Positions 20,294-44,797 of a stretch of 64,000 bases of DNA are shown here, piece after piece. The notes below the pieces were generated by a model, which was not told the origin of the DNA, searched no databases, and was given only the letters and a program-made list of their open reading frames with translations. The stretch is from Tubulanus polymorphus (lineage: Eukaryota > Animalia > Nemertea), in NCBI RefSeq assembly GCF_964204645.1, contig NC_134034.1, positions 7,352,914 to 7,416,913 on the forward strand, in the 5' to 3' direction. The position numbers were made by a program, and so were the translations under genes. Positions within the stretch are counted from its first letter, which is position 1; every line of letters begins with the position of its first letter.

Positions 20294-20462
20294 AGTAATT
20301 GGGAAAGTAGGCTTTCATACCAGAGGTCGAAGGTCGACCACTCATCACCACAAGTAATTTTTTTTCCTTATAAATGGGGGAGAATGAACACCAACCAGAA
20401 AATAATAATGTTAATAAAAATCAATATTATTGCACATATTGTAAAAAATACATCGATAAATC
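20294..20462 (+). repeat. Left terminal inverted repeat of element B
   Basis: Reverse complement of 44629-44797 with one visible mismatch (TGT versus CGT). Confidence 0.95.
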
Positions 20463-20558
20463 AAATAAACCTTACATGGAAAATGTTAGAAATTATATTG
20501 ATTCACTAGAAATAAAAGATACAATTGAAATTTTAGAAATATTACGTAGTAAAATTGT
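20374..20558 (+). pseudogene. Duplicated, internally deleted 5' end of pPolB
   Basis: MGENEHQP..DKS joined to NKPYMENV..RSKI, matching 44717-44629 and 44348-44252. Confidence 0.9.
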
Positions 20559-20724
20559 GACACACATAAACAGTGAGTGCGCGTAACAACAGCTGCGCGT
20601 GTGTTAACTGTACCTGGATAAATAGATGCTGTGAGGCTTGGGTGAGAACGGTTAATAGCGTGTTTGTTATATACAGGGGAAGAAATCCCCACTCATCACC
20701 ACAAGTAATTTGTTTTCCTTATAA

Positions 20725-21051
20725 ATGGGAGATAGAAAAGCATTCTTAGCAACAATAAATAACAGAATAAAACCAGCAAAAAAACAATTTGAAATAAAAA
20801 AGTTAGTTGATTTTACAAAAGAAATTGAACATAAAATATTGAAATTAGAAAAGATAAAAACTAAATATGGAGAGAAAGTATCAGCTAATTTAAGCTACTG
20901 TAATGTTAGTACATCACGAGAATTTAAAGTGTTTTTACCCGATAAATGGGTTTCATTGAGTACAGAGGAATTGAAAGATTTAGTAGGATTTAAAATAATA
21001 TATCATGAGAAAAATGAAGATGGTCATCATGATTTAGAAATTGTTGATTAA
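20725..21051 (+). CDS. Polinton 108-aa protein, possibly OB-fold/ssDNA-binding
   Basis: Intact ORF behind a partial TIR copy; TKYG..VFLP pattern with alternating hydrophobic strands. The function is an inference. Confidence 0.6.
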   Translation: MGDRKAFLATINNRIKPAKKQFEIKKLVDFTKEIEHKILKLEKIKTKYGEKVSANLSYCNVSTSREFKVFLPDKWVSLSTEELKDLVGFKIIYHEKNEDGHHDLEIVD

Positions 21052-21124
21052 ATAAAAAATAAAAATAAATATAGCTGCAAAGCAGCGATAACGGGTTTTC
21101 TGCACAGTCTTAGAATCCTGTTCA

Positions 21125-21350
21125 ACGGTGGATTTCAACAAAGCATTTGATAAGGCTCAACATCAGCCATTACTAAACAGTATCAATGATAGGTCGCCCA
21201 AATGGCTCAGCAGTTATCTCTGAACGGAAACTTGTAACCGAAATCAACGGAACGCCTCATCTTGGAATGAGACGGTCTAACTAGTGGAGTCACGCAAGGT
21301 AGTATCCTAAGTCGTCTTCTGTTTAATCTCCTGACAAATGACATACACAG
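21125..21350 (+). pseudogene. Degenerate non-LTR (CR1/L2-like) reverse transcriptase relic
   Basis: VDFNKAFDK..WLSSYL..SGVTQGSILSRLLFNLLTNDI. Confidence 0.75.
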
Positions 21351-21435
21351 TTATCCAAAATATACCAGACCGAGTAAATTTCCAAAACAACCTTAACACA
21401 CTGTTCGACCAAAAACTTAATGTTCCGACAAAACC

Positions 21436-21732
21436 ACGGGCGACAAAACCAAAATTATGAATCGTCGCGGGTGACAAAACCAAAATATTGAATTGTCACG
21501 GGTGACAAAACAAAAATAATGAATTGTCGCGGGCGATAAAACCAAAATAATGAATTGTCGTGGGCGATAAAACCACAATAATGAATTGTCGCGGGCGTTA
21601 AAACCAAAATATTGAATCGTCGCGGGCGATAAAACCAAAATAATGAATTGTCGCGGACGGCAAAAACAAAATAATGAATTTTTGCGTGCGACAAAACCAA
21701 AATAATGAGTTGTCGCGGGCGATAAAACCAAA
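21436..21732. repeat. 31-bp satellite, first block
   Basis: Unit AAAACCAAAATAATGAATTGTCGCGGGCGAY, about 9 copies. Confidence 0.97.
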
Positions 21733-23149
21733 CTAGGGGTCCAGGGACACCATGCTCACTTGGGAAGTGGTTTCAAATGCTCAACTATCTAACAATTTAA
21801 ATACATAACGCCCTCTAGTGACCATATACAAAAACCAATGACCTTGAAACCCACCACAATCATAGAACATGTGAGCAGCTATGATTTTGTAATTGATTGT
21901 GATAACAAAATATGCCTCGTTACCAATTTAATATGGAAATACTAAGTTATTCTACTATTCAACGCCCTCTGGTGACCATATGCAAAACCCAATGACCTTG
22001 AAACTCACCACAATCGTAGTACATGTCATGAAATACAATTTTGCAATTGATCATAGTAACAAAATATGCCTAGGTACCAATCTAATAAGGAAATACTAAG
22101 CCATTCTACTATTCAGCGCCCCCTGGTGACTATATAGAATAACTAATGTCCTTAAAAACTCACCACAATCATAGACGATGTCATGAACTACAACTTAACA
22201 ATGGATCATGGTAACAAACTATGCCTAGGTACCAATCTAATAAGGAAAAACTAAGCTTTTCTACTATTCAACGCCCCCTGGTGACTATATGGAATAACTA
22301 ATGTCCTTAAAAACTCACCACAATCATAGACGATGTCATGAACTACAACTTTGCAATTGATCATGGTAACAAAATATGCCTTGGTACAAATATAATATAG
22401 CGATACTAAGTTATTGTATTATTCAACGCCCCCTGATGGCCACATACGAAAACCAATGACCTTGAAACTCACCAAAATCATAGAACACGTTATGGGCTAC
22501 AACTTTACAATTGAATATAGTAACACAATATGCTTAGGTATCAATTTAATGTGGAAAAACTTTTTCCCACCTACGAATGAGTACTGATGACACCAAGATG
22601 GCCGCCAATTGCGTCATAATTGGCTGATCAAAAATACCTGTCCCAGGTATAAAACATCCCTCTCTAAAGAATACCCATCAGCAATTGCAATGAGAAATGG
22701 CAAACCAGTAGGAAGCTACAGGACCTAGAATTCTGGCCAAAATTGACATTTTTGGGCACTAAAAAGGTCATAGGACGGCCATCTTGAGTCAGATCGACCC
22801 ATTTTTCTTATGCTGATGGGCCTTTGGTAGATTCAAATATAAACGAAAGATCAAGGTAATTGATCAAAGCGTCTTCAAAATTTCCCACGAAAACTTCGAA
22901 AATGTTTAAAAAGTGCTGATTATGGCAAACAACAATGGCTGCCAGTCGACCATCTTGAATCTGACAGGGCTAGTTTTTGGGCTGACGATGTGTCTAGGGT
23001 AGATACATGTTTACACCAAATATCAAGACATTACCTTGAAGCGTCTTCAAAACTTCCCAAAATAACTGGATTCCGTCTATGGACGGACGGACGGACGAAA
23101 AGTGAACGCAATAGCCCGCTGGGACTAAAGTCCCAAGTGGACTGAAAAA
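21730..23149 (+). mobile_element. Non-autonomous Helentron/HINE-like element inserted in the satellite
   Basis: Inserted in an A-run without TSD; contains about 154-bp tandem repeats (21808-22555), a (GGAC)n microsatellite and the terminal hairpin TGGGACT-AA-AGTCCCA. A related end lies inverted at 59986-60050. Confidence 0.6.
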
Positions 23150-26100
23150 GAATTGTCGCGGGCGACAAAACCAAACTAATGAATTGTCGCGGGTGATAAA
23201 ACGAAAATATTGAATTGTCACGGGCGACAAAACCAAAATAATGAATTTTCGCGGGCGATAAAACCGTAATAATGAATTGTCACGGGCGATAAAACCAAAA
23301 TAATGAATTATCGCGGGCGACAAAACCAAAATAATGAATTATCGCGGGCGATAAAACCAAAATATTGAATTGTCGCGGGCGACAAATCAAAAAAAAAATT
23401 GTCGCGGGCGACAAAACCAAAAAAAATTGTCGCGGGCGACAAAAACAAAATATAAAACCAAAATAATGAATTGTCGCGGGCGATAAAACCGTAATAATGA
23501 ATTGTCGCGGGCGATAAAACAGAAATAAAGAATTATCGCGGGCGACAAAACCAAAATGATAAATTATCGCGGGCGATAAAACCAAAATATTGAATTGTCG
23601 CGGGCGCCAAAACCAACAAAAAAATTGTCGCGGGCGCCAAAACCAAAAAAAAAATTGTCGCGGGTGACAAAAACAAAATATAAAACCAAAATAATGAATT
23701 GTCGCGGGCGACAAAACTAAAAAGAAGGATTGTCGCGCGCGACAAAACCAAAATAATGAATTGTCGCTGGCGATAAAACCAAAATAGTGAAATGTCGCAG
23801 GCGATAAAACCGGGACAAAAAAAAAATTGTCGAGTGCGATAAAACCAAAATTATGAATTGTTGCGTGTGACAAAACCAAAACAATGAATTGTCGCAGGCG
23901 ATAAAACAAAAATAATGAATTGTCGCGGGTGATAAAACCAAAATATTGAATTGTCGCGGGCGACAAAACCAAACTAATGAATTGTCGCGGGTGACAAAAC
24001 CAAAATAATGAATTGTCGCAGGCGATAAAACCAAAATAATGAATTGTCTCGGGCGACAAAAACATAATATTTAATTGTCACGTGCGATAAAACCAAAATA
24101 ATGAATTTTCGCGGGCGACAAAACCAAAATAATGAATTGTCGCGGGCGACAAAACCAAAATAATGAATTGTTGCGGGTGATAAAACCAAAATAATTATTT
24201 GTTGCGGGCGACAAAACCAAAATATTGAATTGTCGCGGGCGACAAAAAAAAAATTAAACCAAAATAATGAATTGTTGCGGGCGACAAAAACAAAATATAA
24301 AACCAAAATAGTGAATTGTCGCGGGCGACAAAACCAAAATAATGAATTGTCGCTGGAGATAAAACCAAAGTAATGAATTGTCGCGGGCGATAAAACCAAA
24401 ATATTGAATTTTCGCGGGAGACAAAACAAAACTAATGAATTGTCGCGGGCGACAAAACCAAAAAAGAATTGTCGGGGCGACAAAACCAAAATAATGAATT
24501 GCCGCGGGCGACAAAACCAAAATGGTGAATTGTCCAGGGGACAAAACCAAAATGGTGAATTGTCGTGGGCGACAAAACCAAAATAATGAATTGTCGTGGG
24601 CGATAAAACCAAAATAATGAAGTCGCGGGCGACAAAACCAAAATAATGAATTGTTGCGGGCGATAAAACCAAAATAATGATTTGTTGCGGGCGACAAAAC
24701 CAAAATATTGAATTGTCGCGGGCGACAAAAAAAAAATTAAACCAAAATAATGAATTGTCGCAGGCGACAAAAACAAAATATAAAACCAAAATAGTGAATT
24801 GTCGCGGGCGACAAAACCAAAATAATGATTTGTCGCTGGAGATAAAACCAAAGTAATGAATTGTCGCGGGCGATAAAACCAAAATATTGAATTTTCGCGG
24901 GAGACAAAACCAAACTAATGAATTGTCGCGGGCGACAAAACCAAAAAAGAATTGTCGGGGCGACAAAACCAAAATAATGAATTGCCGCGGGCGACAAAAC
25001 CAAAATGGTGAATTGTCCAGGGGACAAAACCAAAATGGTGAATTGTCGTGGGCGACAAAACCAAAATAATGAATTGTCTTGGGCGATAAAACAAAAATAA
25101 TGAATTATCACGGGCGATAAAACAAAAATATTGAATTGTCGCGGGCGATTAAACCAAAATATTGAATTGTCGCGGGCGACAAAACCAAAAAAAGATTGTC
25201 GCGGGCGACAAAAACAAAATATAAAACCAAAATAATGAATTGTGGCGGGCGATAAAACCGTAATAATGAATTGTCGCGGGCGATAAAACAGAAATAAAGA
25301 ATTATCGCGGGCGACAAAACCAAAATGATAAATTATTGCGGGCGATAAAACCAAAATATTGAATTGTCGCGGGCGACAAAACCAAAAAAAAAATTGTCGC
25401 GGGCGCCAAAACCAAAAACAAAATTGTCGCGGGCGACAAAAACAAAATATAAAACCAAAATAATGAATTGTCGCGGGCGACAAAACTAAAAAGAAGGATT
25501 GTCGCGGGCGACAAAACCAAAATAATGAATTGTCGCTGGCGATAAAACCAAAATAATGAATTGTCGCAGGCGATAAAACCGGGACAAAAAAAAAATTGTC
25601 GAGGGCGATAAAACCAAAATTATGAATTGTCGCAGGCGATAAAACCAAAATAATGAATTGTCGCGGGCGATAAACCCAAAATATTGAATTGTCGTGTGCG
25701 ACAAAACCAAAATATTGATTTGTCGCGGGTGACAAAACCAAATTAATGAATTGTCGCGGGCGATAAAACCAAAATAATCAATTGTTCCGGGCGATAAAAC
25801 CAAAACAATCAATTGTCACTGCTGATAAAACCAAAATATTGAATTGTCGCGAGCGACAAAACCAAAATATTGATTTGTCGCGGGTGACAAAACCAAATTA
25901 ATGGATTGTCCCGGGCGATAAAACCAAAACAATGAATTGTCGCGGGCGATAAAACCAAAAAATTGAATTGTCGTGGGCGACAAAACCAAAATACTGATTT
26001 GTCGCGGGTGACAAAACCAAATTAATGAATTGTCGCGGACGATAAAACCAAAATATTTAATTGTCGCAGGCGATAAAACCAAAATCTTGAATTGTCGCGG

Positions 26101-26446
26101 GCGACAAAACCAAAATATTGAATTGTTGCGGGCGACAAAACCAAACTAATGAATTGTTGCGGGCGATAAAACCAAAATAATGAATTGTCGCGGGCGATAA
26201 AACCGCGACAAAAAAAAAAAATTGTCGCGGGCAATAAAACCAAAATAATGAATTGTCGCGTGCGACAAAACCAAAATAATGAATTGTCGCGGGCGATAAA
26301 ACCAAAATAATGAATTGTCGCGGGCGATAAAACCAAAATATTGAATTGTCGCGGGTGACAAAACCAAATTAATGAATTGTCGCGGGCGATAAAATCAAAA
26401 TAATGAGTTGTCGCGGGCGATAAAACCGAAATAATGTTTTGTCGCG
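23146..26446. repeat. 31-bp satellite, main block (about 105 units) with higher-order duplications
   Basis: Same unit; variant blocks recur at offsets 483 and 1769. Confidence 0.97.
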
Positions 26447-26544
26447 TTATTTCAGTTTTGTGGTTTTGTCATAATGTCGCCCTCATTTGCATATACGTGT
26501 TTTTTTTTACACATGGCCCTTATCAGCCACCATACTAAAGCCTT

Positions 26545-26891
26545 AAGGTCGCGTAAAACTCGATAAACACTTCAAGCGACACAGCGAACGATCTCCTTTC
26601 CCCTACAGCGAACGCTTAACCTAGTAGAGGCTACTAGCCTATGTAGGCCTATGTATATGCGTAGGCCTAACATCCGGACAGATTGGTCGTAGGCCTATTG
26701 AATTTAACAACCCACCTAAATATCGTAAATTTTGTTTTGAAGTTCAATCCAATGAGTCCGTTAATAAACGCAACAATTGTACTGTGTTTGTTTGATACAG
26801 TAAAGCTCAGTACCGCCTAAAGCCGCGTCAAACTCGATAAACACTTCAAGCGACACAGCGAACGATCCCTTTCCCCCACAGCGAACGCTTA
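26545..26891. repeat. Two direct repeats of about 72 bp
   Basis: AAACTCGATAAACACTTCAAGCGACACAGCGAACGATC.. at about 26555 and 26830. Confidence 0.85.
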
Positions 26892-28167
26892 CTCCGAATG
26901 TCAAGTGAGTCCAGCATACGGATAGGAGTGTGTTATATACTTGTATTTAGTAAATAACTTGTGCATTTGACAATGATCGGTATGTACTGTAGGAAATATA
27001 GAGTATTGATGGTATTGATATAGAGGTTGAAGCCCGCGGCCGAATAAAGTAATATATTCTTTTATTTTGATACCTCGTCGACATAACAGCTTTTCTCCGC
27101 TATATCTCTTCGGCGTGTTTAGTTTAGGCCTACGATTCCCCGGTACACTAAAGATTTATCTTAGTAAATACACGGTTAATTCGGTGAAGAAAAATAGGTA
27201 TTGTTATACTAACTCCTTGAAACCCGCAGCCAAATCACTGGTAGTAATAAATTAATTTGTACTCGATTTGATTCTCATGATGAGGAGAAACAGGCAGCTG
27301 ATCCCCGGAACGACGATGTAGTAACACACGTCGATTCGTCGATGTTTACGGCTCGACAGTGCTTTTAAAATCTAAAGTAGTAAATTTCCAGTGTATCGGT
27401 AATATGATTTGATGAGGAAAATGGGCTATTGTTAAAATCACTGTTTGAAGACCGCGACTGAATTTGAAGTCTGCGGCAATAAATTAGTTCATTTATACTT
27501 GAATTGATAATCGAAGTGACAGTCGGCCTGCGGGTTGATTTCGGTTTGACGATTCGAAAAACATGTCGCCCCATTGAATGGGGCTAAATTTTCGATGTTT
27601 ACGGCCCGACAGCGCATTTGTAACGATGATTCGTGAAAAAACACGAGGGCTATTTGTAGATCTCAGTGAGCTGAACGATATTATATGGATTGTATATGAA
27701 ACAGTGGTAAGGTAACAAAGCCTATGTTCTTTTGGTAAAAATAGTGTGGAAGAAAATAATAATAATAATAATCACGCGGATATCAATAGGGTTTTCTGTG
27801 AAATAACAGAAAACCCTAATGAATATCTAGAATCCAAAATGACCTTAGTCGTTTTATAAACAACTACAATCATACAGTCAAACATCTGTTACATGTTATT
27901 ATAAGAGAGTGCTTCATTTGAATATTGATCAATCAAACAGGTGTTGCACAACGTTGTTGTTATATTGGATAGCTAGCAGTTACATAATAAGCACGCAGTA
28001 CATACAACACACACAGGCCAGTTAGCCGGCATTGAACTACCACGTTTTCATTGGTTGCTGAAAGCGAGGTTTATTTAAATTAGCTCGGCCGTGACGACAG
28101 GAGGATAGTCATCATTCTCTCTCGTGATTAAAAGGAATATTTCAATGTTTTTACGGTAAGTTTTAGC

Positions 28168-28456
28168 AAAACCACCCGACTTGACTCGCAGAGTTTTTAG
28201 GGGATAAGCATCCCGTTATTGAGAGGCGCCACGAGATACCTATCCCCAAGCATTTCTACTTACACCCCTGTGACCCACGCTTCACCAATTCTCCTTCAAT
28301 GGTTGACAGGAAACACATTATATTAAAGGCGCCTAATGCATTTCCTATCAACCCCTTACCCCCGAAAGGAGGATCGAAAGTCGAAACTGAAGGAGAACCA
28401 CGGAGGGTGGACAAAGGTGCATTTTCGAAATGCCCCTGCAAGCCAAGCCCGGCGGC
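28168..28456 (-). ncRNA. Candidate 289-nt structured Pol III ncRNA (unknown family), copy 2
   Basis: GC-rich island. The 5' and 3' ends pair (19 of 20 bp); internal 20-bp, 17-bp and 14-bp helices are complete only with G-U pairs on the minus strand. Starts at G 31 nt after TATATAA and ends at the first TTTT. Confidence 0.72.
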
Positions 28457-28480
28457 ACTCCAGTGGTTGAATGAATTGCA

Positions 28481-28522
28481 TTATATACTTAGCTAAAACA
28501 CCTAAGTAAATGTTGCTGGTGC
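28481..28522 (-). promoter_or_regulatory. TATA box (28487-28481) and possible PSE-like element near -66
   Basis: Spacing equals that of U6-type Pol III promoters; the PSE match (GCACCAGCAACATTTACT) is weak. Confidence 0.5.
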
Positions 28523-28899
28523 TAAAAAAATATGTGAAATTTGAAATTATAAATTATTCCGAATGAAAAGAATATAAGAATGAAAACTGATAAATGAATT
28601 ATGGATTTTTAACATAATTATGATATAATTTTTAATCAAATTAGTAATCAATTACTATGTTAATTGATTAACAAATTCAAATTCAAATTCAAATATTCAT
28701 TTTAGCATACTCAGTGCTGTCATCTTTAAATTTAAGAAAAAACTAATAATAAGAAACGACTGTAATACAATATTCAAGTAAAAACAAAATAAATTAATAA
28801 AAATAATGAATATCTAGAATCCGAAATGACTTATCTGGACAATTTAATTGCTCCGCATAGATAGACAAAAGTAGTGAGATATTCAATTAATTAAAAAAA

Positions 28900-29280
28900 T
28901 TATTTTTTTTGCTTTTTTCTAACATATTCATCCATTTTCTTTATTATCAATTTTGGAATTTCAGAAGTATTTTCATTTTTAATAGCAGTTATTTCAGGAT
29001 TATTAATATCATGAATTTTATTTGATTTCTTATACCAATTACACCCAATCAAAATGAATACAATTACGAATCCAACTGTAAAATATGAATATTTATCAAA
29101 TATTCTATTATCAGAAGGATTAGAAATAACAATATTTTCACTATTTTTATTAACATTTATATTACTTATTTTTTCTTTTACAGCTTTTTTATATTCTTGT
29201 GATTTAATTCCTAATTGCCGAGACCATTCAATTTGTTTCTGTGATCTCGGTTTTTTCTTCACTTCTTCCACCTCGCTCAT
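28900..29280 (-). CDS. Polinton single-pass membrane protein
   Basis: ORF with TAAATG start and one hydrophobic segment. Confidence 0.7.
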   Translation of the reverse strand: MSEVEEVKKKPRSQKQIEWSRQLGIKSQEYKKAVKEKISNINVNKNSENIVISNPSDNRIFDKYSYFTVGFVIVFILIGCNWYKKSNKIHDINNPEITAIKNENTSEIPKLIIKKMDEYVRKKQKK

Positions 29281-29818
29281 TTATTATAGAAATATTTTTA
29301 CTTTCAATATTTGAAAATGTTATAACCCCAGTTGATAATAATGTCATATATCCACCTAATTGAAATGATAAATATCCAATCCATTTATTTAATTCAGTCA
29401 TAACTAAATAATCATTTTTTAAATCGGAATATAATCTATTTTCATCTTCAATTGGTAGTATATAATTACATAATTTACTATAACCTTTTACTACATTTTC
29501 TGATATCGCGTCATTAATTCTAGCTGTTCTCGCGGCTTCATAAATCTTAAATAATCTAATAATTTCATCTGATTTCATTGTATCTAATTCATTATAAGTT
29601 AAATTTTTACGGACAAAATTTTTACATTTTCCAGATGCTATTAATATTTCTAATTGATGTTTACAGTAAAGATAATATTCATAATTATTATTTGTTGTAA
29701 CATTATTTAAAACACCATCATCTGGAATTAATTTGTTTTCTGTTATTCCTAAATCATCTAAAGTTTTTTCAATTGGAACATCACCATTTTTAGATTTTAT
29801 TTTCTTTTCACCTACCAT
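29228..29818 (-). CDS. Polinton hypothetical protein, 196 aa
   Basis: ORF with T7-GTTATA-TAAATG start context. Confidence 0.7.
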   Translation of the reverse strand: MVGEKKIKSKNGDVPIEKTLDDLGITENKLIPDDGVLNNVTTNNNYEYYLYCKHQLEILIASGKCKNFVRKNLTYNELDTMKSDEIIRLFKIYEAARTARINDAISENVVKGYSKLCNYILPIEDENRLYSDLKNDYLVMTELNKWIGYLSFQLGGYMTLLSTGVITFSNIESKNISIINERGGRSEEKTEITETN

Positions 29819-29849: not shown

Positions 29850-30115
29850 CAACTACTAGAATTCAACTAGAATGTAACTAGAATTCAACTAGATTAACAA
29901 GCTAGTTGAAATATTGTTATTTTTGTTTATTTCTTGTTAAATCTAGTTGATTTTTGTTCCAACTACCAATAACTAGAATTCAACTAGAATGTAACTAGAA
30001 TTAAACTAGATTAACAAGCTAGTTACAATATTGTTAAATTCTAGTTGAATTCTAGTTACAACTACCAATAACTAGAATTGTAACTAAATATGTAATTGAT
30101 TAACAAACTAATTGA
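29850..30115. repeat. Degenerate 11-bp repeats (AACTAGAATTC) in both orientations
   Basis: Visible directly; includes a duplicated block of about 55 bp. Confidence 0.85.
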
Positions 30116-30165
30116 ATTTAAATAAATTCATATTTAAATGGGTGTTGTAATCTAAATAGTAATTT

Positions 30166-30726
30166 TTATCTTTTAATATTTTTCAACTTATCCATATATT
30201 CATTATGTAAATCATGTGGAATAATATCATTTTCCTCAAGTGCATTTTTCATCGATTTTCTATCTTTATTGTAGAAAAAAACTAGAAATCTAATGTTTTC
30301 TCTAAAGTCTTTAACAATTGAATTATATTTTTGATTTAAAACCCAAGTTGTTATCCCAAAATGTCTCCCGGAGAAAGCTAAATAACATAACTCACTTTCT
30401 CTAACTTTTGAATCATGTAAATTTGCACAATCATCTATGATAAATAATGTATTTGATCCTTTATAAATATCAATTGCTATTTTTATACAATTATCTAAAT
30501 TTTCTTTTACTGTTTTAGGATCTAATATAATAAATTTATTATTTCTAGTAATATTTCGATCATAAGTTTGATTAAATTCATATGTTGGACAAAATAATAC
30601 TATATTATCAAAATAGTTTTTATAAACAGTTTCTAATAAATTTAATATAAAATAAGTTTTTCCACAATTTGTTACACCAGAAATTAACATATTATGAGGC
30701 TTAAATATGAATAATTCCTTATTCAT
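30166..30726 (-). CDS. A32/FtsK-HerA-like DNA packaging ATPase
   Basis: GVTNCGKT, LFIIDD, SGRH, VLNQ. Confidence 0.92.
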   Translation of the reverse strand: MNKELFIFKPHNMLISGVTNCGKTYFILNLLETVYKNYFDNIVLFCPTYEFNQTYDRNITRNNKFIILDPKTVKENLDNCIKIAIDIYKGSNTLFIIDDCANLHDSKVRESELCYLAFSGRHFGITTWVLNQKYNSIVKDFRENIRFLVFFYNKDRKSMKNALEENDIIPHDLHNEYMDKLKNIKR

Positions 30727-33151: not shown

Positions 33152-34583
33152 TTATTTATTTTTGATCATGTTTACTAAACCAAAAATAATAGCACTTACA
33201 ACTGTAATTAAAAATAAAATAATATGTTCAGCAGCAAAGTTAAGAATATTCCCAGCAGATTTCAATATAAAACCAACAATTGATGCAATAACTCCTGGCA
33301 ATGCTGCAGCAGATTTTTTAGATAGTTCCCATAAATATTTTGCTAATTTCTTTAAACCATCTTTAACTTTATCTTGTATAGAATTATTATCATTCGGGGG
33401 TTTATCCGGTTTATTGGGAGTAGGAGTAGATTTCAAAGCATTTGATATTGCTAAACCAATTGTTGTAAATAACATAGTTACAGCTGTTAGAATTGAAAGA
33501 ATTGTTATTCCTTCTAATTTAAATAATAATCTTATTCTGTCTTTTAAATATTTCAGAATTTGGTTTAATCAACAAATCTTTAAAAATAACTTTTAATCTA
33601 TTAATATTATAATCATATGATTTTAACAATAATTTAATTTCTTCTTTTTGTAATTCTATGTTATATTCTAAATCATCTTTTTCTTTTTCTAAACGTAATT
33701 CTTTTTGCCTATATTCTATTTCATCAATTACTTGATGATCTAAATCAGACTTTAATTGTTCTATTTCTTTATTTTTATCAGTTAATTCTTTTTCTAAAGT
33801 TCTAATTTTAAAATCTCTTATACTTTTATCATGCGCAATTTTATTAGATGCATTTCTTATACTAATAATTTCTCTAATTGCTTTATCAGAAAATATATCT
33901 AAATCTTCTAATTCTTGATTTGTTGCATCAATTAATCCATTCGGTAAAAGTTTTTCAATTGGAACTTTATTTGATTTAAGTTTACTATTTTTGGAAGTTA
34001 TATTCTGTTCAGAAGTTGTTTCTGTTTCTGATTTCTTTTTGATTATTTCAAACAATTCATTAATTCTTTGTTTAAATACATCTATATTATCATCTATTTC
34101 TTTTTGTGTAACATCAGTTATTTCATTACTATTACTTATTATTTTAATTCTATCTGGTTTTAATTTTTCTAAAGTTGATTCTGATAATATTTTATTTTTA
34201 TTATTTTTATAAGTGATATCAATATAATAATCACCTTTCAAACGATAATAACATTTACCATTATCTAAAAATTTTAATTGATCTGCTAAAAGTCCAACGT
34301 CTTCATCATTTATGTTAAGTTTAGATTTTTCAATTAAATCTTCTAATTTAGGTATTTTGTTTAAATTATCTAAATCTTGTTTTACTAAATCTGGGTCTAA
34401 ATTTTCAGGATTTAATTGTGATTCAGCATTTTTAATATAATCAGGCATATTTAAATTATTATTATATTCTGGCTCATTACCATCATTAAAACTTGTTTCA
34501 TCAAAATCAGGTGGTTGTTCATCAGTTATACCAGGTTCATCAAAATTATCCATTCCAATATCTTCTCCACCTTCTACATCCAT
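33152..34583 (-). pseudogene. Acidic/coiled-coil protein with C-terminal transmembrane segments, frameshift near 33550
   Basis: The 354-aa and 107-aa ORFs align with 13107-14567. Confidence 0.75.
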
Positions 34584-34599
34584 TTATATAATAAAAAAA

Positions 34600-35979
34600 T
34601 TAAAATTTAAAATATAATATTCCTCCAATTACAATTCCTATACAAGTTATAGCTAATTTAGTATTTTCATGGGATCTATTATCATTATCAGTTTTAATTA
34701 TATCATGTTGAATATTATCAGTTCTTATATCTTCTGATGTATTGTAATCTTTTATTTTAGAATCATTATTTAATTTAATATTCTTAGTTTTAGTTTCAGT
34801 TGATTAAATGTGTTTTTTATTTTTTTCACCTTCCATTAATTTTGGAGCAGTGATAATCTTTTTATTTATATCATTCAATCCAAATGAATTATTTATTGTT
34901 GCAGTTTTAATTAGATTATTATAACCAATTATTTTTCCCATCTTTAATACTAAATCATTAGAAATAATAAATAGATTAGGACCTATACAATAATTTAATC
35001 TAATATGTGATTTATCTAAATAATTTTGATATCTTACAATGTTTTCTGGAATCGATCTATTTTTATCATTATGTATGGAATCTTCAAATAAAACTTTAAA
35101 TTGTTTTTGTGTATCGAATGATGTATTCAAATTTCCAATTATCGGCGATCTTGTTTCAACTTGCGCACCTAAAATACATATCAAATAAGTTCTAATAGAT
35201 GGATTTATTCTTTGTATTCCGGCTTTAGTAAAACCTTCATTATTTTCTAAAATGAAATAAACCCAACCATTATTGTTTTCTTGTTTTAAATTATCATAAA
35301 ATTTCGGTAATTTATTGAAATTTAATGTTTCTAAATCCTTAGTTTCTATTTTACTTTTATTATTATAGATATTATAAAAACTATTAGATGGTATGGGAAG
35401 TGCACAATATTCTGCAATCTTTTTAGGGCAAGGAAGTGATCTTATTGTTCCAATTTTTGTTCTAAAATCAGAATCATTTATATCTATATTAAATTCATTA
35501 CAAATTTTATAAAACTTTGATAAATTAATATTATTATCTAATTCTTTAAAATATCTTGATCCTGGTAATGCACACTCTAATTCATTTAATATTATTCTGA
35601 TTTGAAAGTATGTATGAAATCTAAATAAACTTTGAATTAATTTATATTTAGAATTATTCAAATGATCATTCCAACTAATTCCACAACCTGTTGTTGCACA
35701 ATAAACAGCAAAATTTAATTGATTCTGCCAATACTTCATATTAGATTTTAATAACCATTGTTTTTCATCTTTCAATTTTTTAAAATCAATTAAATATACA
35801 TGAAATATATTTTCCATCTTTGCATTAAAATTATTAGTTTCAGTAACATAAATTTCTAAATTAGTTAATGAATCTAAAACTTCATTTCTATATGTAATAT
35901 CTTTATTAAAATCTATTGCAGGAATATTATATTTAATTGATTTATTATATTGGAAAGCTTTTGGAAAACTATCTACCAT
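34600..35979 (-). pseudogene. Polinton conserved hypothetical protein, premature TAA at 34804
   Basis: Homolog of 11675-13090; the frame continues to the hydrophobic tail. Confidence 0.75.
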
Positions 35980-35995: not shown

Positions 35996-36430
35996 TTAAT
36001 AATTTATTAATTCTTTTAATAATTTATCTTGTTCTTCAACTGTTATATGACCATTTAAACTTATTATATAATCTAGTGTGTTCTTTAATTTATTAATTTC
36101 TTTTATATTAGTTTTAATTTTTTCTTTATTACTTTTTATATTTAATTTTGAACTTATACCAGTTAAAACACTTGAACTTAATCCTAACACACCAATTGAT
36201 ATAGCTAAAGGTGTTAATGGGCTGAATATTGCTAAAAATGTTATTACAGAACTAATTGTAACCGAACCACTTATAATCAAATAATATATAATTTTACTTT
36301 TTAAATTTTTTTTCTTTTTTATCTTTAAGTCACTTTCAAATTCTAATATTTGTTTTTCTAAATATATTTTTAATTTAGTTTTATTTATATCATGAGGAAA
36401 AATATCAATACTATCAACTTTATCTTCCAT
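35996..36430 (-). CDS. Two-TM Polinton protein, 144 aa
   Basis: Homolog of 11230-11658. Confidence 0.78.
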   Translation of the reverse strand: MEDKVDSIDIFPHDINKTKLKIYLEKQILEFESDLKIKKKKNLKSKIIYYLIISGSVTISSVITFLAIFSPLTPLAISIGVLGLSSSVLTGISSKLNIKSNKEKIKTNIKEINKLKNTLDYIISLNGHITVEEQDKLLKELINY

Positions 36431-36449
36431 TTATTTAGAAAAAAAATTA

Positions 36450-36872
36450 CTAATTAGTAAACTTATAAGCAACAAATATAACAATAACAGTTCCACCTAA
36501 AATCCAAAGTATTTCATATTTCTTCTGTTCTTTACTTGGGGTATGATAATCTGATAATTTAGGTTTGTATAGATGTAATTTTTCTTTATTGGTTACCGCG
36601 TTATATAAACTCATTGCATCATCAACTGATTGAAAATCTCTATGTGAAATCTTCTGATCATATAATTCTTTGTTAATATAATCCATATAGTTTTGCCTCT
36701 TTTCTCTATATTCTTCTGCTGCTTTATTGTATTTCTCTAATGCTAAGTTATGTCTTCTTTGTTCTCCTAATGACCTATTTTTATCAATATGTTTAAATAA
36801 ATATCCACCACCAGTAAATGCCAAAGCGTTAACAATTGCCGATCCTATAATAGTTATAATTGCAGAAGCCAT
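36450..36872 (-). CDS. Polinton conserved membrane-associated protein, 140 aa
   Basis: Homolog of 10785-11207. Confidence 0.8.
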   Translation of the reverse strand: MASAIITIIGSAIVNALAFTGGGYLFKHIDKNRSLGEQRRHNLALEKYNKAAEEYREKRQNYMDYINKELYDQKISHRDFQSVDDAMSLYNAVTNKEKLHLYKPKLSDYHTPSKEQKKYEILWILGGTVIVIFVAYKFTN

Positions 36873-36896
36873 TTATTTAGTAAAATAATTACGCAT

Positions 36897-37118
36897 TTAT
36901 ATGGGAGGAATATATTTTTGTTTTTCCAAATAATCAATAGTTAAATTAGATAAAGTAACTGCTAATGTTAATTTTAAGATATCATTTATATCAAATCTAT
37001 CAACATTAACACTTCCCATTTTGAATACTTTTTTTAATACCATTGAATAACCAACAGTTCCAACTGATAGTAATGCGCCATTATATAATCCAGTTATTAT
37101 CCACTTATTATCACTCAT
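36897..37118 (-). CDS. Small hydrophobic Polinton protein, 73 aa
   Basis: Intact ORF; homolog at 10539-10759. Confidence 0.75.
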   Translation of the reverse strand: MSDNKWIITGLYNGALLSVGTVGYSMVLKKVFKMGSVNVDRFDINDILKLTLAVTLSNLTIDYLEKQKYIPPI

Positions 37119-37459: not shown

Positions 37460-37475
37460 TTATATAGTGAAAAAA

Positions 37476-38264
37476 TTACTCTTTACATCTTATAACTAAT
37501 TCATAAATTACAGGAAAGTTATTTAAATCAATTAAATAACCATTATGATTTCTTATTTCTAATTTAAAATTATTGAAATGTGGAATACAAGGTTTGAAAT
37601 CACATTCAGTTAAATTATAATTTATTTGAGTTCCAAATTGTTTGACATTTTTTAATGGTAAAATATTTAATATACTAGAATTACAAATTGTATCTTTAGT
37701 TGCTTCAAATGTTTTTGTTGGGTTAATTAAATTGCAATAAATATAAAAATGTGTAAAAGGTATTGAGTTTGATATACCGTATATGTTTCCAATAATAAGT
37801 TTATTTGGAGGAATTCCTAACAGTTTAGCAAAAGGTTTTTTTACTGCGTAAGCATGTCTTCTTAACATAAATGAATCAGGACTAATATTTTCATCATCAA
37901 ACTTTACTTTAATTTTATTAGAGCTCTCACTTTTTATGAATTTAATATTAAATTTAGAATCACTACCTAACATAATCCGAGCTTTTCTATTAATTTCTTG
38001 CGCTAATGTTTCTAAATTATATAATCCTGGTGTAATCATAAGTTGAAAATTATTATTACTACGTTTATCAAGAATAAAAAAGCTTCTATGTTCATAAGTT
38101 TTATCTTATATATTGTAAAATGAGTTACATAAACTTATATTTACTAATTTTAAATCAACACAATTCTTAAATTCTCTATCTAATTGAACTAGTAAATTAT
38201 GTGATTTATAATTTGTAAGTTTTCTAGAATCAACATATATTCTGTATTCTTTTAATTCTACCAT
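37476..38264 (-). pseudogene. Minor capsid (penton-like) protein, about 262 aa, one in-frame stop at 38106-38108
   Basis: N-terminus MVELKEYRIYVDSR..LLVQLDREF, PGLY motif and C-terminal FYIYCNLI..ILP pattern typical of Polinton minor capsids. Confidence 0.65.
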
Positions 38265-38331: not shown

Positions 38332-39647
38332 ATGGATGAGAAGATAGCATGCGAAATTTGTGGTGAACTTCTAAGAAAAAGTAATATGGCTCGACATATG
38401 AAAAAACATGATGAAAATTATAAACCCCCTAAAATAAACTGCCCAAAATGTAATAAATTATTCTCAAGAAATTATGTTAAAAAACATTCAGAGAAGTGTA
38501 GAATTAATGGCGCAACGGCTAATGTTGATAGTAATGAAAGTAATAGTAATTCTGCCGAAGTTGAACCTGAAGTTATTTGGAAAAGACCTTTCTTATTCTA
38601 TGATACGGATAATATAAAAGATCATTTCTGCGAGCCTTGTCGAATAAAATATAACCCTGAAAATATAGAAGATTGGGAGAATCATCAATTTCGTAAAGTA
38701 CATATAGATAAAATTTCTAATAAATTTGAAACTGAATTTAATGAAAGAAAAAATAATTTATTAGAAAAAATAAAATATGAGAAAACGTTACCAGATAATA
38801 GAGAAACAGTTGAAAAGTTAGAAAAACAATATAATGAATTAACAAGAAAAACATATTATTGTAAATATTGTAAATTGATTATTACAACAAGTAATTCAAA
38901 TCTACATAATAGAACATTAAAACATAAAGAAAACGTAAGAAAATACCAAGAGCTTAATGAAGATCTATTACCAATAAATTATAAACGAAAATGTCCACAA
39001 TGTAGTTATGCGACCTTAAGACAAGAAGGTACTGTGTTATTTTGTGTTGATTGTGGGTGGCAAAAGAATTTATGGGGTGAAGAAAAAACTAGAAATTTTC
39101 TCATAGATCCAAAATTAAATTATCTAGATGAAATTTTTAAAATATTTTCTATAGAAGATCATACACCAGAATATATGCAATGGCTTGAAAAAATGAAAAT
39201 AATAGAAAATAAAAATGGCGAAATAACTAAAAAAGATATTATAAATACAATTATTCCGTCAACATTTAACACAAAACAAAAGAAAATGTATTTATATTTA
39301 TTATTTTTAACGATTATTATGAAAAACCTAAATTAACAGTAGAAGATATGGAAAATATAAAAAAAAATATTCAAACAAATATTAATGTATCATTTGGAAA
39401 ATAGAATAACAGATTCAATAAATTATGAATTCTTTTTAAATAAGATTGTAAATTATTTAAACCTAGATATTATAATTCCATTTGACGAATTAACAAACAA
39501 AAAGAAACAAAGAGAGCGAGATGAAATGTGGAACAAGATGGAACTTTATTTAAATGAAAAAATGGAATGGAAGAAGAACCTAAACAATTAAATGAAAATG
39601 AAGAAGCCAATAGTGATTTCGAGTTTGATGATATAGATCCATTTTAA
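38332..39647 (+). CDS. Multi-zinc-finger protein fused to a poxvirus A2/VLTF-3-like late transcription factor domain (homopolymer frameshifts near 39306, 39363 and 39560)
   Basis: Four C2H2/C2HC fingers, then CPQC-x13-CVDC, RNFLIDPKLNYL, KPKLTVEDMENIKKIF, SINYEFFLNKI and DEMW. These match my recollection of vaccinia A2 (CSGC-x13-CIFC, SNFHVSNKLIHL, TINYSFFLDKI). Confidence 0.75.
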
Positions 39648-42600
39648 TAACCATAAGGTAATGTTTTTATACCATCATCTAAAATATGCCTTTTATCATC
39701 AAATGGATTTAAACTAGTTTTTTCAACTTCATTAATGTACATTTCATGATCTTCTGATCTTAAACAATTCATTTTGTGTTTCATTACAATTGATTTATAT
39801 AAACACTTTATATAATCTTGAAATTCTATATGTTTATCAACCACATGTTTTGTTATTCCTTTTAACTTTTTAGCTTCATGATCTTTTGTTCTGTAACTAT
39901 ACATTTTACTTCTTATCCCAACAAATTCAATCATTTCATCACCCCCTAATTCATCTTTAAATTTACCAGGAATCTTTTTATTATCATTGCTAAATAGTTC
40001 ATGATCTTTGGGATAATTGCTAAAATCAAAATAATGTTTTAATGTTTTTAAGTCTTTTGTTATATCATTTGTCTTGATTTTTAGTATGTAACTGTCGGTA
40101 TTTTTTTGGATTAATGGGAACCCAGAATTGAATGTTCCATCATCTGTTGATAAATCATAAACATAGTCAGTTGGGTTATATATTTCAAATAAATCTTTAA
40201 CTTCTTCTGTTAATTCTTTTTCTACATGCCTTAAATTAAAACAATTTGGTTTAGATTTGATTAATTCTATATTCATATTAAATCCTAATGAACTGCATAA
40301 TATATTCAATCCTGATATAGCAACTTTTCCTTTTTGAGCAAAGGATATTGTTTTGCGGTTTTGGAAACTTTTTGAACCATCTGCGGCATAGAATCCAATG
40401 AAGAACCACTTTCTTAAATTATTTTTTGCATTCAATACATAATCTGGAACTATCTTTTCTTTTGTTGAAGTATTACTTTTCACTATTGCATGAATATAGA
40501 ATTCATCATTATATTTTGTAGCAAAATCTTTAGGATTATTTACAAATATTCTATAAACCGCGGATGATTTCATATGATCCATGATTCTAAATGTTTTATA
40601 TGAATAAACTTCTTCGCAGAATTTCTTTATTCTTTCTAATAATTTCAAATCTTGATTGCATAAATACCAACGATATTGAGTGCGATTAACATAATTATAC
40701 ACACCTGCTGAACCATCACCCATGAAAAATCCTTTGATAAAATATTCTTTTTCTTCTAATGTTTCAGGTTCTATATTATAAATATTATCAATAATTTCAT
40801 CAAATGACATATGATTCATTCTTTGGAAAAATCTTTTATGTAATAATTCATCTCCAATTTTTATATCAGTTGGTTTTATTTCATCACCATTTCGTTTAAT
40901 TAAACTATGATCTTCTGTAACATCTACAAATCCTAATTTAGTTCTAACTCTATAGATTTTCTTATTTGTTTTATGCCTAATAATATTCTTTAATTTTTTC
41001 CATCCATTTCTTGTCCAAACATCCATTAAACCATTTATTTGTATTAATTCTTTTTCTCCATATGAAATATAACATTCATTTTGTTTTGGAATTATTTCTG
41101 AAATTCTTCTTATCAATATTTTATTATTACATTTTAATAATATTGGGGTGTCAGCTGTTACAGGATCGAAATATAATATTTCAATATGCTTTTCCCCAAA
41201 AAGTGGTTGTAAAACAATATAATAAAAATCATACATTAATAATTTTGATACTTCTAAAACAGTCGAACCAATAAATATAGGTTTATTAAATTTCATTGAT
41301 GTTCTTTTTAATTTAACTGCTGTTAAATAATCTTCAAATCTTTTATTTCCTAAATGTCTATGACTTGATTGTAGGTGTCTTAATCTTTCAGAATTATTTA
41401 CTAATTCAATATCATTTCTATTTCTAATATTTTCGCATGTTTTACCATAAAAACTATTATTCATTAATTTGAAGAAATCTTTTTCAAAATCTGTTTTTGA
41501 TATGGTTCTCTATTGAGTATTGAAATCTATATATTTTTCTAACCACTTCGATTGATTAAATTCAATATATTTATGTACTTTCTTTAATTTCATTCCTTGT
41601 TTTAGATAAAATTTTAACATTCTATAATGAACAATATAATTGTATTTACTATTTTGAGTAAGTATTAATTTTTCTGTAAAAACATGATCTTTCGGTTTTA
41701 TTTTCTTCTGGTATTCACTTAAATAACTATCATCTACAGTTAAATGTTCTGGGCAATAAGGTAAGTTTCTTGTTTTAAACTTTATATTTTCAGGATATTC
41801 TAAATCAACTACAAAGAAATAACCAATTGGTGCTTCATCTTTTAAACTCGCAATTGCGCTTTCCCAATCAGTTTTATCACCATTTTCAACTTCTGTTAAT
41901 ATAAAACTTTTATATGGTTGAGGTTTCATCATTGCCCAACCATATAAATTATTGGCGTCAATATATAATAATTTATATTCATCATTTGCTTTAAAATATC
42001 TATCTCCCATAACACCACTAATTCCACCTCTAATTGATTTTTCAAATAATAAAACCATATCTGGTTCTTTTAATAAATCTAATTCTACATTTGTATATTT
42101 TAAACCACATTGCCAGGTTAAACCAGGACTAGAGTAGCAATAACAAGGATCAACATTAAAATGATTCAAATTAACTTCTCTAAATTTTTCAAATATGTCA
42201 GCCAATATCATAACGTCTGATTTTAAATATAAATCAACTAATTCACCATGATTTTTCATCTTAAAATGGTTCCAAATATTTAATGTTCTATTAAACACTT
42301 CGTCTTTCACATACTCCTCTTTTAATTGATCATAGAATTGATCTTTTAATAATTCTGTTACATTAAAATCATTGTGTGTTTTATAAAATGAATAAGGAAT
42401 TGCGCCTTTATATCTCAATAATTTAAAATCTTGTTCATTTGGATAATAATATCGAGTTATAACAAAATCATTATCAACTAAACTTTTTGATAAATTATCT
42501 AATGAACTTGCTAGAAATCTATAAGAATCTAAAAATCTAATGCAACCAAATTGAAATGAAATATAATTTTCAGATGTTTTAGCTAATAGTTTAAAATCAT

Positions 42601-44717
42601 ATTTTCTTACATTTGCTTCATTCATAGCATTCATTATATTCTTCTATTTCTTGATTAATTGCGCCAAATTTTCCCGATAATTTTTTTATAAATAGATGGG
42701 TATCATATCCTGATAAATTATGAAATAATATTGGTACGAAATTTACTTTTTTAGCTGGTAAATTGCAATCTTCATGAGCAGCTCCACGATATTTTGAATT
42801 CAAATGATCATGATCTCTAACTCTTTTATCAAATGAATAAAAACGTTTTTCACAATAACAACAATGAGTTGCATAATTAAAATCAATTTCATCTTCTTTT
42901 GTCATAACTATTCTTTTATTTTTGTTTAATAATTTTGCAAAATCACTTTCTAATTCAATCATTTTATCACAAAAATCATTAACTACATTTTCACCTCTAA
43001 AAGAAATATATTGACTTTCATATAATTCAGGATAATTTGATTTTATATAAATTCCATAAGCAGCAGCTCTTTGATGAACTTTTTTAATTGTATTTATAAT
43101 TGGTGGGTCTTGTATTGTGTCTTCATTTAATTCATTTCCTTTATCCATTGATTTTAATAATTGCTTTTTGTTATATATTTCTTTTCTATCTTGATTAGTT
43201 AATTCTTTATTCAATGATTCAAAATCCCCATAAATTACAAATGGAACAATATTCTTAAATTTATGATTAGTAAATTTCAATTTATAATCTTTTTCTGTTG
43301 GCATTATTAATTTACAAAAATCTTTATTATCACATAATTCTTTATGTTTTAGTAACGCATTCTCAGTCATAAATTTAGATAAACATTTTCTACATAGATA
43401 AATTTTATTATGATGATCACTTTCTGTTCTAAAGAATAAATCAATTTGTTTTAACCACATATAATGTTCATTTTCATCTTTTTTGTAATATAACAAATCT
43501 ATAGCATTTTCATCATCATAATATTCTGTTAAATATAAAGCTTCCAATGTATAATCTTTAATATTTTCACCTTTTGTCTTTGGTAATTGCATTAATTCGA
43601 ATACATTTTTTTTTAAATTATTAACTTTTTCTATTTTAGGAATCATTTTCATAGTTACTGGATATTGATCAATTTTATATAATGTTTCATATTTCCGGTA
43701 ATTTGTTATTCTAAAACTATGCGTCATATCTTCTGTTGGGTGTAAACAACTAATAATTGACCATAGAAAACATTTATTATCTTCATTTTGAATATTTATT
43801 ACTGCTTTTGTTGTAAATGGTAATTTAATATAAGATGATGCTTTAATATCCTTTTCTGTTGTAAAGTTTGAATCATTTTTAAACATTTTATTACTTTTTG
43901 ATGTTTTATTCCTTTTTGTATTATAAACATTTAAATCTAAATATATAATTTCATTCAATGTTGAGCCAGAACCCTCAAAATATCTTTCTTCAATATGACG
44001 TTTAAATTCATTAAATATTTTTTCTAACTTCTCTTTTATTTGTGTTTTTGAAATTATTTCTTCAGAGAGTGTTTGAATATTATAATCCATTTTATCTTCT
44101 GACTTTAAAAAACTTACTTTCCCAGAGATACTAATTTTTGGATATTCAACATCTGTTATCAAATCTAGTATTTTTTCTATTATTTCACTAAATTTGCTAT
44201 AATCTTCTATTGTTGTTCCTTTAAAAAATCTAAATATAATAGCTGCAGGACCAATTTTACTACGTAATGTTTCTAAAATTTCAATTGTATCTTTTATTTC
44301 TAGTGAATCAATATAATTTCTAACATTTTCCATGTAAGGTTTATTTGAAATGGATTTAGTTTTTGAAGTTGATTTTTTTACTTGTTGAGGTTTATTATCA
44401 AAATATTCTGGTCCTAAAACATTTTTATTTAAATTTTTATAATGTTTTTGTGATTCGAGATGTCTATTATAATTCCTTTTTATTATAAATTCATTACAAA
44501 CTTCACATTTTATTTCATCCACATTCATATTTTCTAATCGTTCTTTTCTTTCATTGGAATTTTTTGGAGTTTCAAAATCTATTACATTTTTTATATGATT
44601 TGCAGATTTTTCATGTCGTGATTTTTGGGATTTATCGATGTATTTTTTACGATATGTGCAATAATATTGATTTTTATTAACATTATTATTTTCTGGTTGG
44701 TGTTCATTCTCCCCCAT
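39644..44717 (-). CDS. Protein-primed DNA polymerase B with intein (one frameshift near 42625, one stop at 41510)
   Basis: Zn fingers, OTU-like NEDNKCFLW..HYMWL, ExoI-III, RDHDH..RGAAH..CN insert, motif A YIDANNLYG, motif B KLMNNSFYGK, motif C YFD/TDS split by the intein, then RSKMY and KLKGI. Confidence 0.95.
40100..41164 (-). mobile_element. Intein with LAGLIDADG homing endonuclease in pPolB motif C (355 aa, in frame; residue 1 is Pro in this copy)
   Basis: Block A (S/P)VTADTPILL, block B VDVTEDHSL, endonuclease motifs IKGFFMGDG and FIGFYAADG, block F YVYDLST, block G LIQKN followed by +1 Thr (TDS). Confidence 0.95.
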
Positions 44718-44797
44718 TTATAAGGAAAAAAAATTACTTGTGGTGATGAGTGGTCGACCTTCGACCTCTGGTATGAAAGCCTACTTTCCCAATTACT
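44629..44797 (-). repeat. Right terminal inverted repeat of element B; contains the pPolB promoter motif and start codon
   Basis: Reverse complement of 20294-20462. Confidence 0.95.

Follow-up and report, generated by a model that had tools for sequence, protein, structure and literature searches.

A Polinton clade with poxvirus-type start-site motifs in an animal genome: candidate satellites of a hypothetical helper virus

Poxvirus-type motifs at the gene starts of a Polinton clade

We analyzed a 64,000-nucleotide stretch of the genome of the nemertean Tubulanus polymorphus (contig NC_134034.1, positions 7,352,914 to 7,416,913, forward strand), hereafter called the window. The element at 20294-44797 belongs to a multicopy Polinton family and is an integrated copy in decay; nearly all its genes, like those of its close relatives, start in a motif that resembles the late and intermediate promoters of vaccinia virus. 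We favor as probable the reading that this Polinton clade consists of satellites transcribed by the RNA polymerase of a hypothetical cytoplasmic helper whose intermediate and late promoters are of poxvirus type. For the helper, a poxvirus or a near relative is the most likely candidate, with about two thirds of the weight of this reading; it may instead be asfarvirus-like.

Thirteen of 15 gene starts in the window read TAAATG (expected frequency, 0.066 each; P = 4e-14). The other two read TAAATA and TAGATG, the latter being TAAATG in its orthologues. Runs of at least four T precede 12 of the 15 starts, and 11 of these runs end 5 to 7 nt before the TAA. The frequency of T is maximal at positions -12 and -13 from the A of the ATG (88% and 83%, respectively), which corresponds to 9 to 10 nt before TAAAT. 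Vaccinia late promoters are described as a T core, a 5- to 7-bp spacer, and TAAAT(G/A) (PMC5294985), and a T is conserved 10 nt upstream; for intermediate promoters, the upstream part is described as A-rich (PMC11980589). The TAA of the motif is distinct from the stop codon of the upstream gene, and the full motif also stands ahead of terminal genes that have no upstream neighbor. Translational coupling was considered as a source of TAAATG and rejected, because the upstream stops lie about 20 to 30 nt away.

A search with the capsid returned 920 homologues. As controls for the promoter claim, we used the best 80 of 240 metagenomic loci, which carry the same gene set and range from 20% to 60% GC; the counts include only the starts of six genes that align near the N terminus, and some loci are near-duplicates. 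In 17 close loci, one of which (L060) was placed in this bin via a short segment, TAAATG was found at 29 of 33 starts; for the subset of close loci at about 29 to 44% GC, the count was 14 of 18. In distant relatives that carry this gene set, it stood at 7 of 151 starts, and distant loci below 40% GC had TAAATG at 7 of 33 starts and AAAATG at 17 of 33 (Fisher P = 7e-8).

Starts hand-picked from three relatives and the window fell into two classes. The T-rich class (6 to 7 T between -17 and -11) was found for the major capsid protein and the 196-amino-acid (aa) gene in 4/4 elements; the A-rich class comprised the A32-like ATPase (2 to 3 T in 4/4 elements) and the ZnF408 gene (0 to 2 T in 3/3). 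In vaccinia virus, A32 and A2 are described as intermediate genes (PMC11980589). Thus, the promoter signal that an earlier note on this DNA had pointed out, TAAATG with an upstream T-run, turned out stronger than claimed there, being clade-wide, of vaccinia spacing, divided into two classes, and largely missing from AT-rich outgroups. No report of poxvirus-type promoters in animal Polintons was present in the titles and abstract openings surveyed, a set that includes few of the subscription papers.

Accessory genes of the family carry the motif as well. A zinc-finger gene that follows the capsid gene at window positions 15888-16340, in L002 (2461-3687), and in L003 and L005, and that is not in the main copy, has an A-rich class promoter in every case. 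TAAATG likewise stands at the start of genes for HNH-like endonucleases in L002 (5568-6083) and L007 (3289-4023), which suggests that the promoter is acquired by incoming genes.

Points that weigh against a poxvirus-type helper

Several findings, which concern the promoter, the VLTF3-like gene, the intein, and the read depth, weigh against the favored reading. The helper is hypothetical, and transcript starts are predicted from sequence alone. Starts of the TAAATG type also occur in four distant loci, and the putative penton and integrase genes switch promoter class among relatives. The class match with vaccinia virus is imperfect, as the capsid homologue D13 is described as an intermediate gene (PMC11980589). 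Late promoters of African swine fever virus (ASFV) are reportedly bipartite too, with a T-rich core and TATA at the start, and many starts of the element read TATATAAATG; the motif therefore points to transcription of either poxvirus or asfarvirus type, the poxvirus match being the best. By codon shuffling, AATAAA was not depleted in the open reading frames (ORFs) of the clade, nor in controls, and the depletion of U5NU equaled a general depletion of homopolymers. Non-depletion of AATAAA and depletion of TTTTTNT were accordingly dropped as signs of cytoplasmic transcription, controls being alike.

The product of the gene at 38332-39634 combines zinc fingers with a zinc ribbon and a helical domain and likely belongs to the VLTF3 family, a placement that we keep as putative. 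The A2/VLTF-3-like identity proposed at the outset is weakly backed, by a subthreshold profile match and by the order of a nonsignificant fold list, and the intact orthologue is unmatched. Pfam Pox_VLTF3 (PF04947) matched the C-terminal piece only (E = 4e-5; 24 bits against a cutoff of 25), and a fold search with a poor model (pLDDT of 51) gave no significant match. Six named VLTF3 or late-factor proteins were among the top 24 nonsignificant fold matches, in the order cowpox virus, marseillevirus, pandoravirus, two entomopoxviruses, and pithovirus. The VLTF3 profile had no significant match in a PDB search, and an NCBIfam search gave nothing. The sole intact orthologue among 1.84 billion representatives, P0241 (40% identity over 339 columns), had no Pfam VLTF3 match and no relative among the prokaryote genomes searched. 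For the N-terminal part, a word-based search returned nothing, and atlas leads, all below 0.9, were clusters of Nucleocytoviricota.

A VLTF3-like gene is also present in L061 (5082-5579), a locus of 47% GC without TAAATG starts. It seems to be a separate acquisition, since it has no detectable similarity to the window gene. Conservation of VLTF3 is described throughout Nucleocytoviricota, also in mriyaviruses and medusavirus, neither of which has an RNA polymerase (PMC11253617, PMC8400408), and homologues are on record in coral polintoviruses (PMC11131425). Moreover, a satellite that relies on the late factors of its helper should not need a VLTF3 of its own. The presence of the gene does not prove a cytoplasmic helper.

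The intein that had been reported in motif C of the polymerase is confirmed: it spans 355 aa (41164-40100), is inserted at YxD/TDS (the slash marks the insertion point), and has Hint and LAGLIDADG matches. Its first residue is altered in the main copy; a third copy of the element (62276-64000) retains the N-terminal nucleophile position. YxD/TDS is described as the pol-c site of mimivirus (PMC549080), and among the best 120 of 562 matches, 112 carry an intein at that site. The top three matches (62, 49, and 47%) belong to protein-primed polymerases and group with the window intein in one clade (SH-aLRT of 100) in a quick tree that leaves out eight matches with unparsed junctions. Nearly all other carriers among these 120 are RNA-primed family B polymerases; mimivirus is the only one named to virus species, and no poxvirus carrier was seen. 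Two tested carriers were pol-delta-like, and in their searches poxvirus chains, which we take to be vaccinia E9, appeared only near E = 1e-3. The intein is absent from 8/8 related loci that cover motif C, including the promoter-bearing L007, and a contig of sequencing run X1 skips a net 1,065 bases at motif C, which is the length of the intein. A tree of the C-extein had no starred branch and failed to separate intein-bearing from intein-free polymerases, and a PDB search with the intein gave no significant match. The patchy occurrence and the giant-virus-type carriers suggest that the intein is a homing passenger and not a poxvirus signal. Intein invasions of polinton polymerases have been suggested in general terms (PMC11071308), and a pol-c allele in a Polinton was not described in the titles and abstract openings surveyed.

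The earlier note had counted promoter, late factor, and intein as three independent signals of a poxvirus-like helper. The promoter holds, but VLTF3 occurs in nuclear viruses and in L061 and the intein is a mimivirus-type pol-c allele, so neither is specific to poxviruses and the three signals reduce to a single discriminating one. In favor of the reading, we still count gene traffic with large DNA viruses, which comprises the VLTF3-like gene, the pol-c intein, and a deoxynucleoside kinase. The latter lies in the close relative L001 (10340-10981, minus strand) behind a T-rich TAAATG promoter (Pfam dNK, E = 2e-31).

Relative to flanking host DNA, the element was about 25-fold deeper in run X1 than in runs X5 and X2. 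The X1/X5 depth ratio had a median of 114 (42 to 516) at 25 element sites and of 4.1 (2 to 20) at 13 flank sites, the X1 values being contig depths summed over several variants in a run whose type (DNA or RNA) is not on record. The excess is compatible with replication as an episome or with strong expression in a single sample, and in view of its derivation we treat it as a lead, not as support.

Alternative explanations

The alternative that survives best is an autonomous nuclear virus with a private late switch, in which transcription is by host Pol II and the T-tract/TAAAT box is read by the element's VLTF3-like factor. The element indeed has its own VLTF3-like gene, integration requires the nucleus, and a CCAAT box and an AT-rich box are present at 28040-28080. 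In addition, mriyaviruses, which have VLTF2/3 and lack an RNA polymerase, are inferred to be nuclear (PMC11253617), and medusavirus likewise (PMC8400408). We nevertheless consider this explanation unlikely, as the motif extends over the start codon, so that a scanned 5' untranslated region (UTR) has no space, intergenic gaps are 20 to 30 nt, and the spacing of the motif is the same as in vaccinia virus. Sense AATAAA, present at about 5 per kb and undepleted, should truncate Pol II transcripts, although controls are undepleted too; finally, L061 has a VLTF3 but no such motif.

Less likely still is a relic, in which the ancestor was a satellite of a poxvirus-type virus and the present copies either move like any transposon or are all in decay. 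Each of the three copies in the window is broken or partial, and there is no known helper. However, in reads of X5, an unrelated DNA run from another individual, several breaks of the window copy are mostly absent and the terminus is joined to many different flanks, and the motifs are intact in relatives at 50 to 78% capsid identity.

That the motif reflects translation or composition, namely, an A-rich start context with an in-frame stop against polycistronic read-in and T-runs that are terminators or AT drift, is very unlikely: TAAATG is literally a stop plus a start, AAAATG stands at 17/33 starts of distant AT-rich relatives, and T-runs often lie directly past the stop of the upstream gene, but their spacing is fixed at 5 to 7 nt, they also precede genes without an upstream neighbor, the motif is retained in relatives of 40 to 44% GC, and the promoter classes are gene specific.

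Proposed mechanism and significance

Under the helper-dependent reading, infection by the helper would mobilize the integrated copy, and linear DNA would reach the cytoplasmic factory. Late mRNAs of vaccinia virus carry a 5' poly(A) leader made by slippage. The helper polymerase would likewise initiate within TAAAT, and the mRNAs would have a poly(A) leader produced by slippage and next to no templated 5' UTR. The A-rich promoters (ATPase, 126-aa gene, zinc-finger genes, and partly the VLTF3-like gene) would fire first. The VLTF3-like factor of the element could then steer, or compete for, late transcription at the T-rich promoters of the capsid, polymerase, and small virion genes. Progeny DNA would be packaged in the element's own capsid and reintegrate. 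The intein would be a passenger that entered a single time from a polymerase of giant-virus type, with homing as its means of spread among Polintons, and the folded RNA described below is, speculatively, a double-stranded RNA decoy or a multimerizing RNA.

A broader proposal, which we regard as doubtful, is that a widespread clade of animal-integrated Polintons represents endogenous virophages of poxvirus-type viruses. Such virophages would have a helper promoter code, a late factor of their own, and a twin-kissing-loop RNA, would be amplified on infection, and would serve as a heritable, inducible anti-poxvirus agent against an undiscovered lineage of invertebrate poxviruses. Heritable defense would require intact copies, induction, and helper inhibition, and the window copy, being broken, is unable to act as a defense alone. 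To our knowledge, animal Polintons are usually regarded as autonomous nuclear elements, with no particle or trigger established. The clade-wide poxvirus promoter code makes helper dependence of some Polintons cheaply testable. If true, it predicts unseen poxvirus-type viruses in the hosts and would carry the model of inducible integrated virophages, based on mavirus in protists, over to animals. For the intein, the implication is that a giant-virus allele crossed into protein-primed polymerases and then moved among Polintons.

Comparison with known systems

The element is like described Mavericks/Polintons (Polintoviricetes; adintoviruses, PMC8502044; coral polintoviruses, PMC11131425) in its terminal inverted repeats (TIRs), 6-bp duplication, protein-primed DNA polymerase of family B (pPolB), retroviral-type (RVE) integrase, A32 ATPase, and double jelly-roll capsid. 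It differs from them in that no protease was found and in its clade-wide two-class poxvirus-type motif, pol-c intein in the pPolB, and folded RNA candidate. Promoters, inteins, and a helper go unmentioned in the main text of the coral polintovirus paper (PMC11131425).

With mavirus and the mavirus-like elements of Cafeteria (Lavidaviridae), the element shares integration of the RVE type, a pPolB, and the lack of an RNA polymerase. Mavirus is reported to share the late promoter of its helper and to be induced from the integrated state (10.1101/068312). Its promoters match the late motif of that helper, whereas those of the element fit the vaccinia consensus and the actual helper is hypothetical. 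Mavirus further differs in its protist host, its helper (Cafeteria roenbergensis virus, with a TCTA motif), and its virophage-type capsid. Induction and host protection have been shown for mavirus; the element is known from its sequence and has its own VLTF3-like gene. We do not assign it to the virophages (Lavidaviridae), as virophage capsids ranked below giant-virus capsids in fold searches and no protease was found.

Polinton-like viruses (PLVs) were found in occlusion bodies of entomopoxviruses (PMC11296320). These small double jelly-roll viruses, proposed as hyperparasites of poxviruses and in one case integrated in an insect genome, resemble the element by description. Unlike the element, they have an adenain protease and either a tyrosine recombinase or no integrase (PMC11296320). 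The terms promoter, TAAAT, VLTF, intein, and transcription do not occur in the main text of that paper.

The promoters of the element share with the late and intermediate ones of vaccinia virus a T core, a 5- to 7-bp spacer, TAAAT(G/A) over the start codon, and an A-rich second class. Unlike in vaccinia virus, the motif is found in a 17-kb integrating element without a polymerase, and the A2-like domain lies behind zinc fingers and is very divergent. The intein is like the pol-c intein of mimivirus and archaeal PolB (PMC549080) in its YGD/TDS-type site, its LAGLIDADG endonuclease, and its 38% identity to the mimivirus intein, and relatives of the intein have Ser/Asn/Thr junctions, as in the pol-c allele (PMC549080). 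Unlike the mimivirus intein, it sits in a protein-primed polymerase and falls in a separate clade with the inteins of three other pPolBs.

Structure and state of the integrated copy

The features of the element are listed in Table 1.

Table 1. Coordinates of the features of the Polinton copy in the window
Feature	Position	Strand	Remarks
Target-site duplication, left copy	20288..20293	+	Inside Gypsy reverse transcriptase (RT) gene
Left TIR	20294..20557	+	Runs on into polymerase 5'-end sequence, inverted and with an internal deletion
108-aa terminal gene	20725..21051	+	TAAATG start; 71% identity to L001 gene
Non-Polinton DNA within the element	21070..27850	.	About 6.8 kb, limits approximate; LINE-like fragment, 31-bp and 155-bp satellites, other sequence
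Candidate structured RNA, branched rod	28150..28470	-	About 330 nt; near-identical copy at 18420-18780
126-aa conserved ORF	28900..29280	-	A-rich promoter class
196-aa conserved ORF	29228..29818	-	T-rich promoter class
Palindromic 11-bp repeat region	29850..30125	.	ACTAGAATT-type; between ATPase and 196-aa gene
A32-like packaging ATPase	30121..30726	-	Premature stop close to end; A-rich promoter class
Retroviral-type (RVE) integrase	30730..31853	-	Frameshift near 3' end
Major capsid protein, double jelly-roll	31884..33131	-	Intact; T-rich promoter class
About 485-aa family-conserved gene	33152..34583	-	Split by frameshift
About 440-aa family-conserved gene	34615..35979	-	Premature stop
Three small conserved ORFs (144, 140, 73 aa)	35996..37118	-	T-rich promoter class
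Putative penton, family-conserved	37476..38264	-	One internal stop; label suggested by size and an N-terminal motif
Zinc-finger protein fused to zinc-ribbon and helical VLTF3/A2-like domain	38332..39634	+	Frameshifted; family placement putative
Protein-primed DNA polymerase B	39644..44717	-	Three pieces; T-rich promoter within right inverted repeat
Intein, LAGLIDADG endonuclease	40100..41164	-	355 aa; motif C (pol-c site)
Right TIR	44622..44797	-	
Target-site duplication, right copy	44798..44803	+	Gypsy RT resumes

A Pfam scan identified the A32 ATPase (E = 2e-13), the RVE integrase (PF00665; E = 3e-10), and the pPolB (PF03175; E = 7e-12). The capsid was modeled as a double jelly-roll (pLDDT of 87) with a best PDB match at E = 1e-16 and a TM score of about 0.6. 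In agreement with the first description of the element as carrying capsid genes and no RNA polymerase, Pfam gave no RNA polymerase match among the 18 of its ORFs scanned. An adenain-like protease, a trait of group 1 Mavericks/Polintons, was found neither in these 18 ORFs nor in 29 ORFs, 28 of them from relatives. By gene content, the element therefore appears closer to group 2, and some relatives have a superfamily 1 (SF1) helicase in place of the pPolB. For instance, L032, a GC-rich relative with the same capsid cassette, encodes an SF1 helicase at 9276-11516 (minus strand), where the pPolB would be. The putative penton has an N-terminal motif that is presumably of penton type; a PDB profile search with it returned nothing. 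The capsid, the L061 VLTF3, and P0121 had no relative among the viral contigs searched.

The inverted repeats at 20294-20469 and 44622-44797 are 176 nt long and 98% identical, and both ends of the element begin with AGTAAT. An identical 6 bases on either side (20288-20293 and 44798-44803) form the target-site duplication, and the frame of a Gypsy RT is interrupted at the left junction (FVTDYRKVN) and picked up again at the right one (NAVTKTDSFPMPRIDD). TIRs opening with AG and a 6-bp target-site duplication are hallmarks of Mavericks/Polintons, and the ends demonstrate integration by the RVE integrase with a 6-bp duplication. The repeats, the duplication, and the split Gypsy gene show that the limits 20294 and 44797 given by the earlier note are exact. 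The left duplication at 20288-20293 itself spells TAAATG, probably by chance.

The copy is not the complete Polinton that it had been taken for. Compared with intact relatives, seven genes are interrupted by stops or frameshifts (two conserved ORFs and the genes for the pPolB, VLTF3-like protein, putative penton, ATPase, and integrase), foreign DNA of about 6.8 kb is contained within the element, and the left end has a deleted copy of the polymerase 5' end. Within the foreign DNA, a 31-bp satellite occupies 21437-21732 and 23150-26446, a 155-bp satellite occupies 21807-22561, and the LINE-like fragment (long interspersed nuclear element) was recognized by eye.

A second copy at 7118-19695 is inverted, more deleted, chimeric, and 73 to 90% identical to the main copy, and it adjoins Gypsy flank. 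Its part at 18138-19695 is 98.7% identical to 27858-29415 and stands in for the 5' half of the integrase. The third, partial copy (62276-64000; 95%) contains the intein and the polymerase C terminus. In run X5, the depth of the element was 205 to 364 in 12/15 bins and higher in the other 3, the shallowest flank bins were 16 to 27 reads deep, and 521 reads exited the right end into mixed flanks (agreement of 0.36). This depth and the mixed flanks at the terminus indicate that the family is multicopy. Several of the breaks of the window copy were not in most X5 reads.

A candidate structured RNA and other noncoding features

The minus strand of 28140-28500 is predicted to fold at -160.8 kcal/mol (z = -11.7; 0/100 shuffles), and nearly the same stretch on the plus strand has a z of -3.5. 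The fold has 124 pairs, 21 of them G-U, and among 300-nt windows of the whole 64 kb, those at its two copies rank first and second in stability. Each of two hairpin loops opens with the self-complementary GGCGCC and closes with AAUA, a pattern that may point to kissing or to a protein site present twice. The two copies differ at two unpaired sites, and since the candidate follows the 126-aa gene in both, it probably belongs to the element. Covariance models of Rfam 15 gave nothing near the gathering score, no homologue was found in the 80 related loci, and canonical Pol III A or B boxes were absent from it. Two pattern matches in viral contigs were judged to be chance. A CCAAT box and an AT-rich TTTAAAT box, possibly a host Pol II promoter, adjoin the candidate at 28040-28110.

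The 11-bp repeat array at 29850-30125 folds on both strands (z of about -7) and is a possible origin or protein-binding site. An intergenic module of about 85 bp with short inverted ends occurs at window positions 28799-28883 and 27819-27845 and in L001 at 2433-2517; it is flanked by different genes in relatives, and part of it is repeated beyond the RNA candidate. Outside the Polinton, the window contains a TIR-bounded nonautonomous element of about 2.4 kb (54246-56628) and a 49-bp tandem array (56813-57478).

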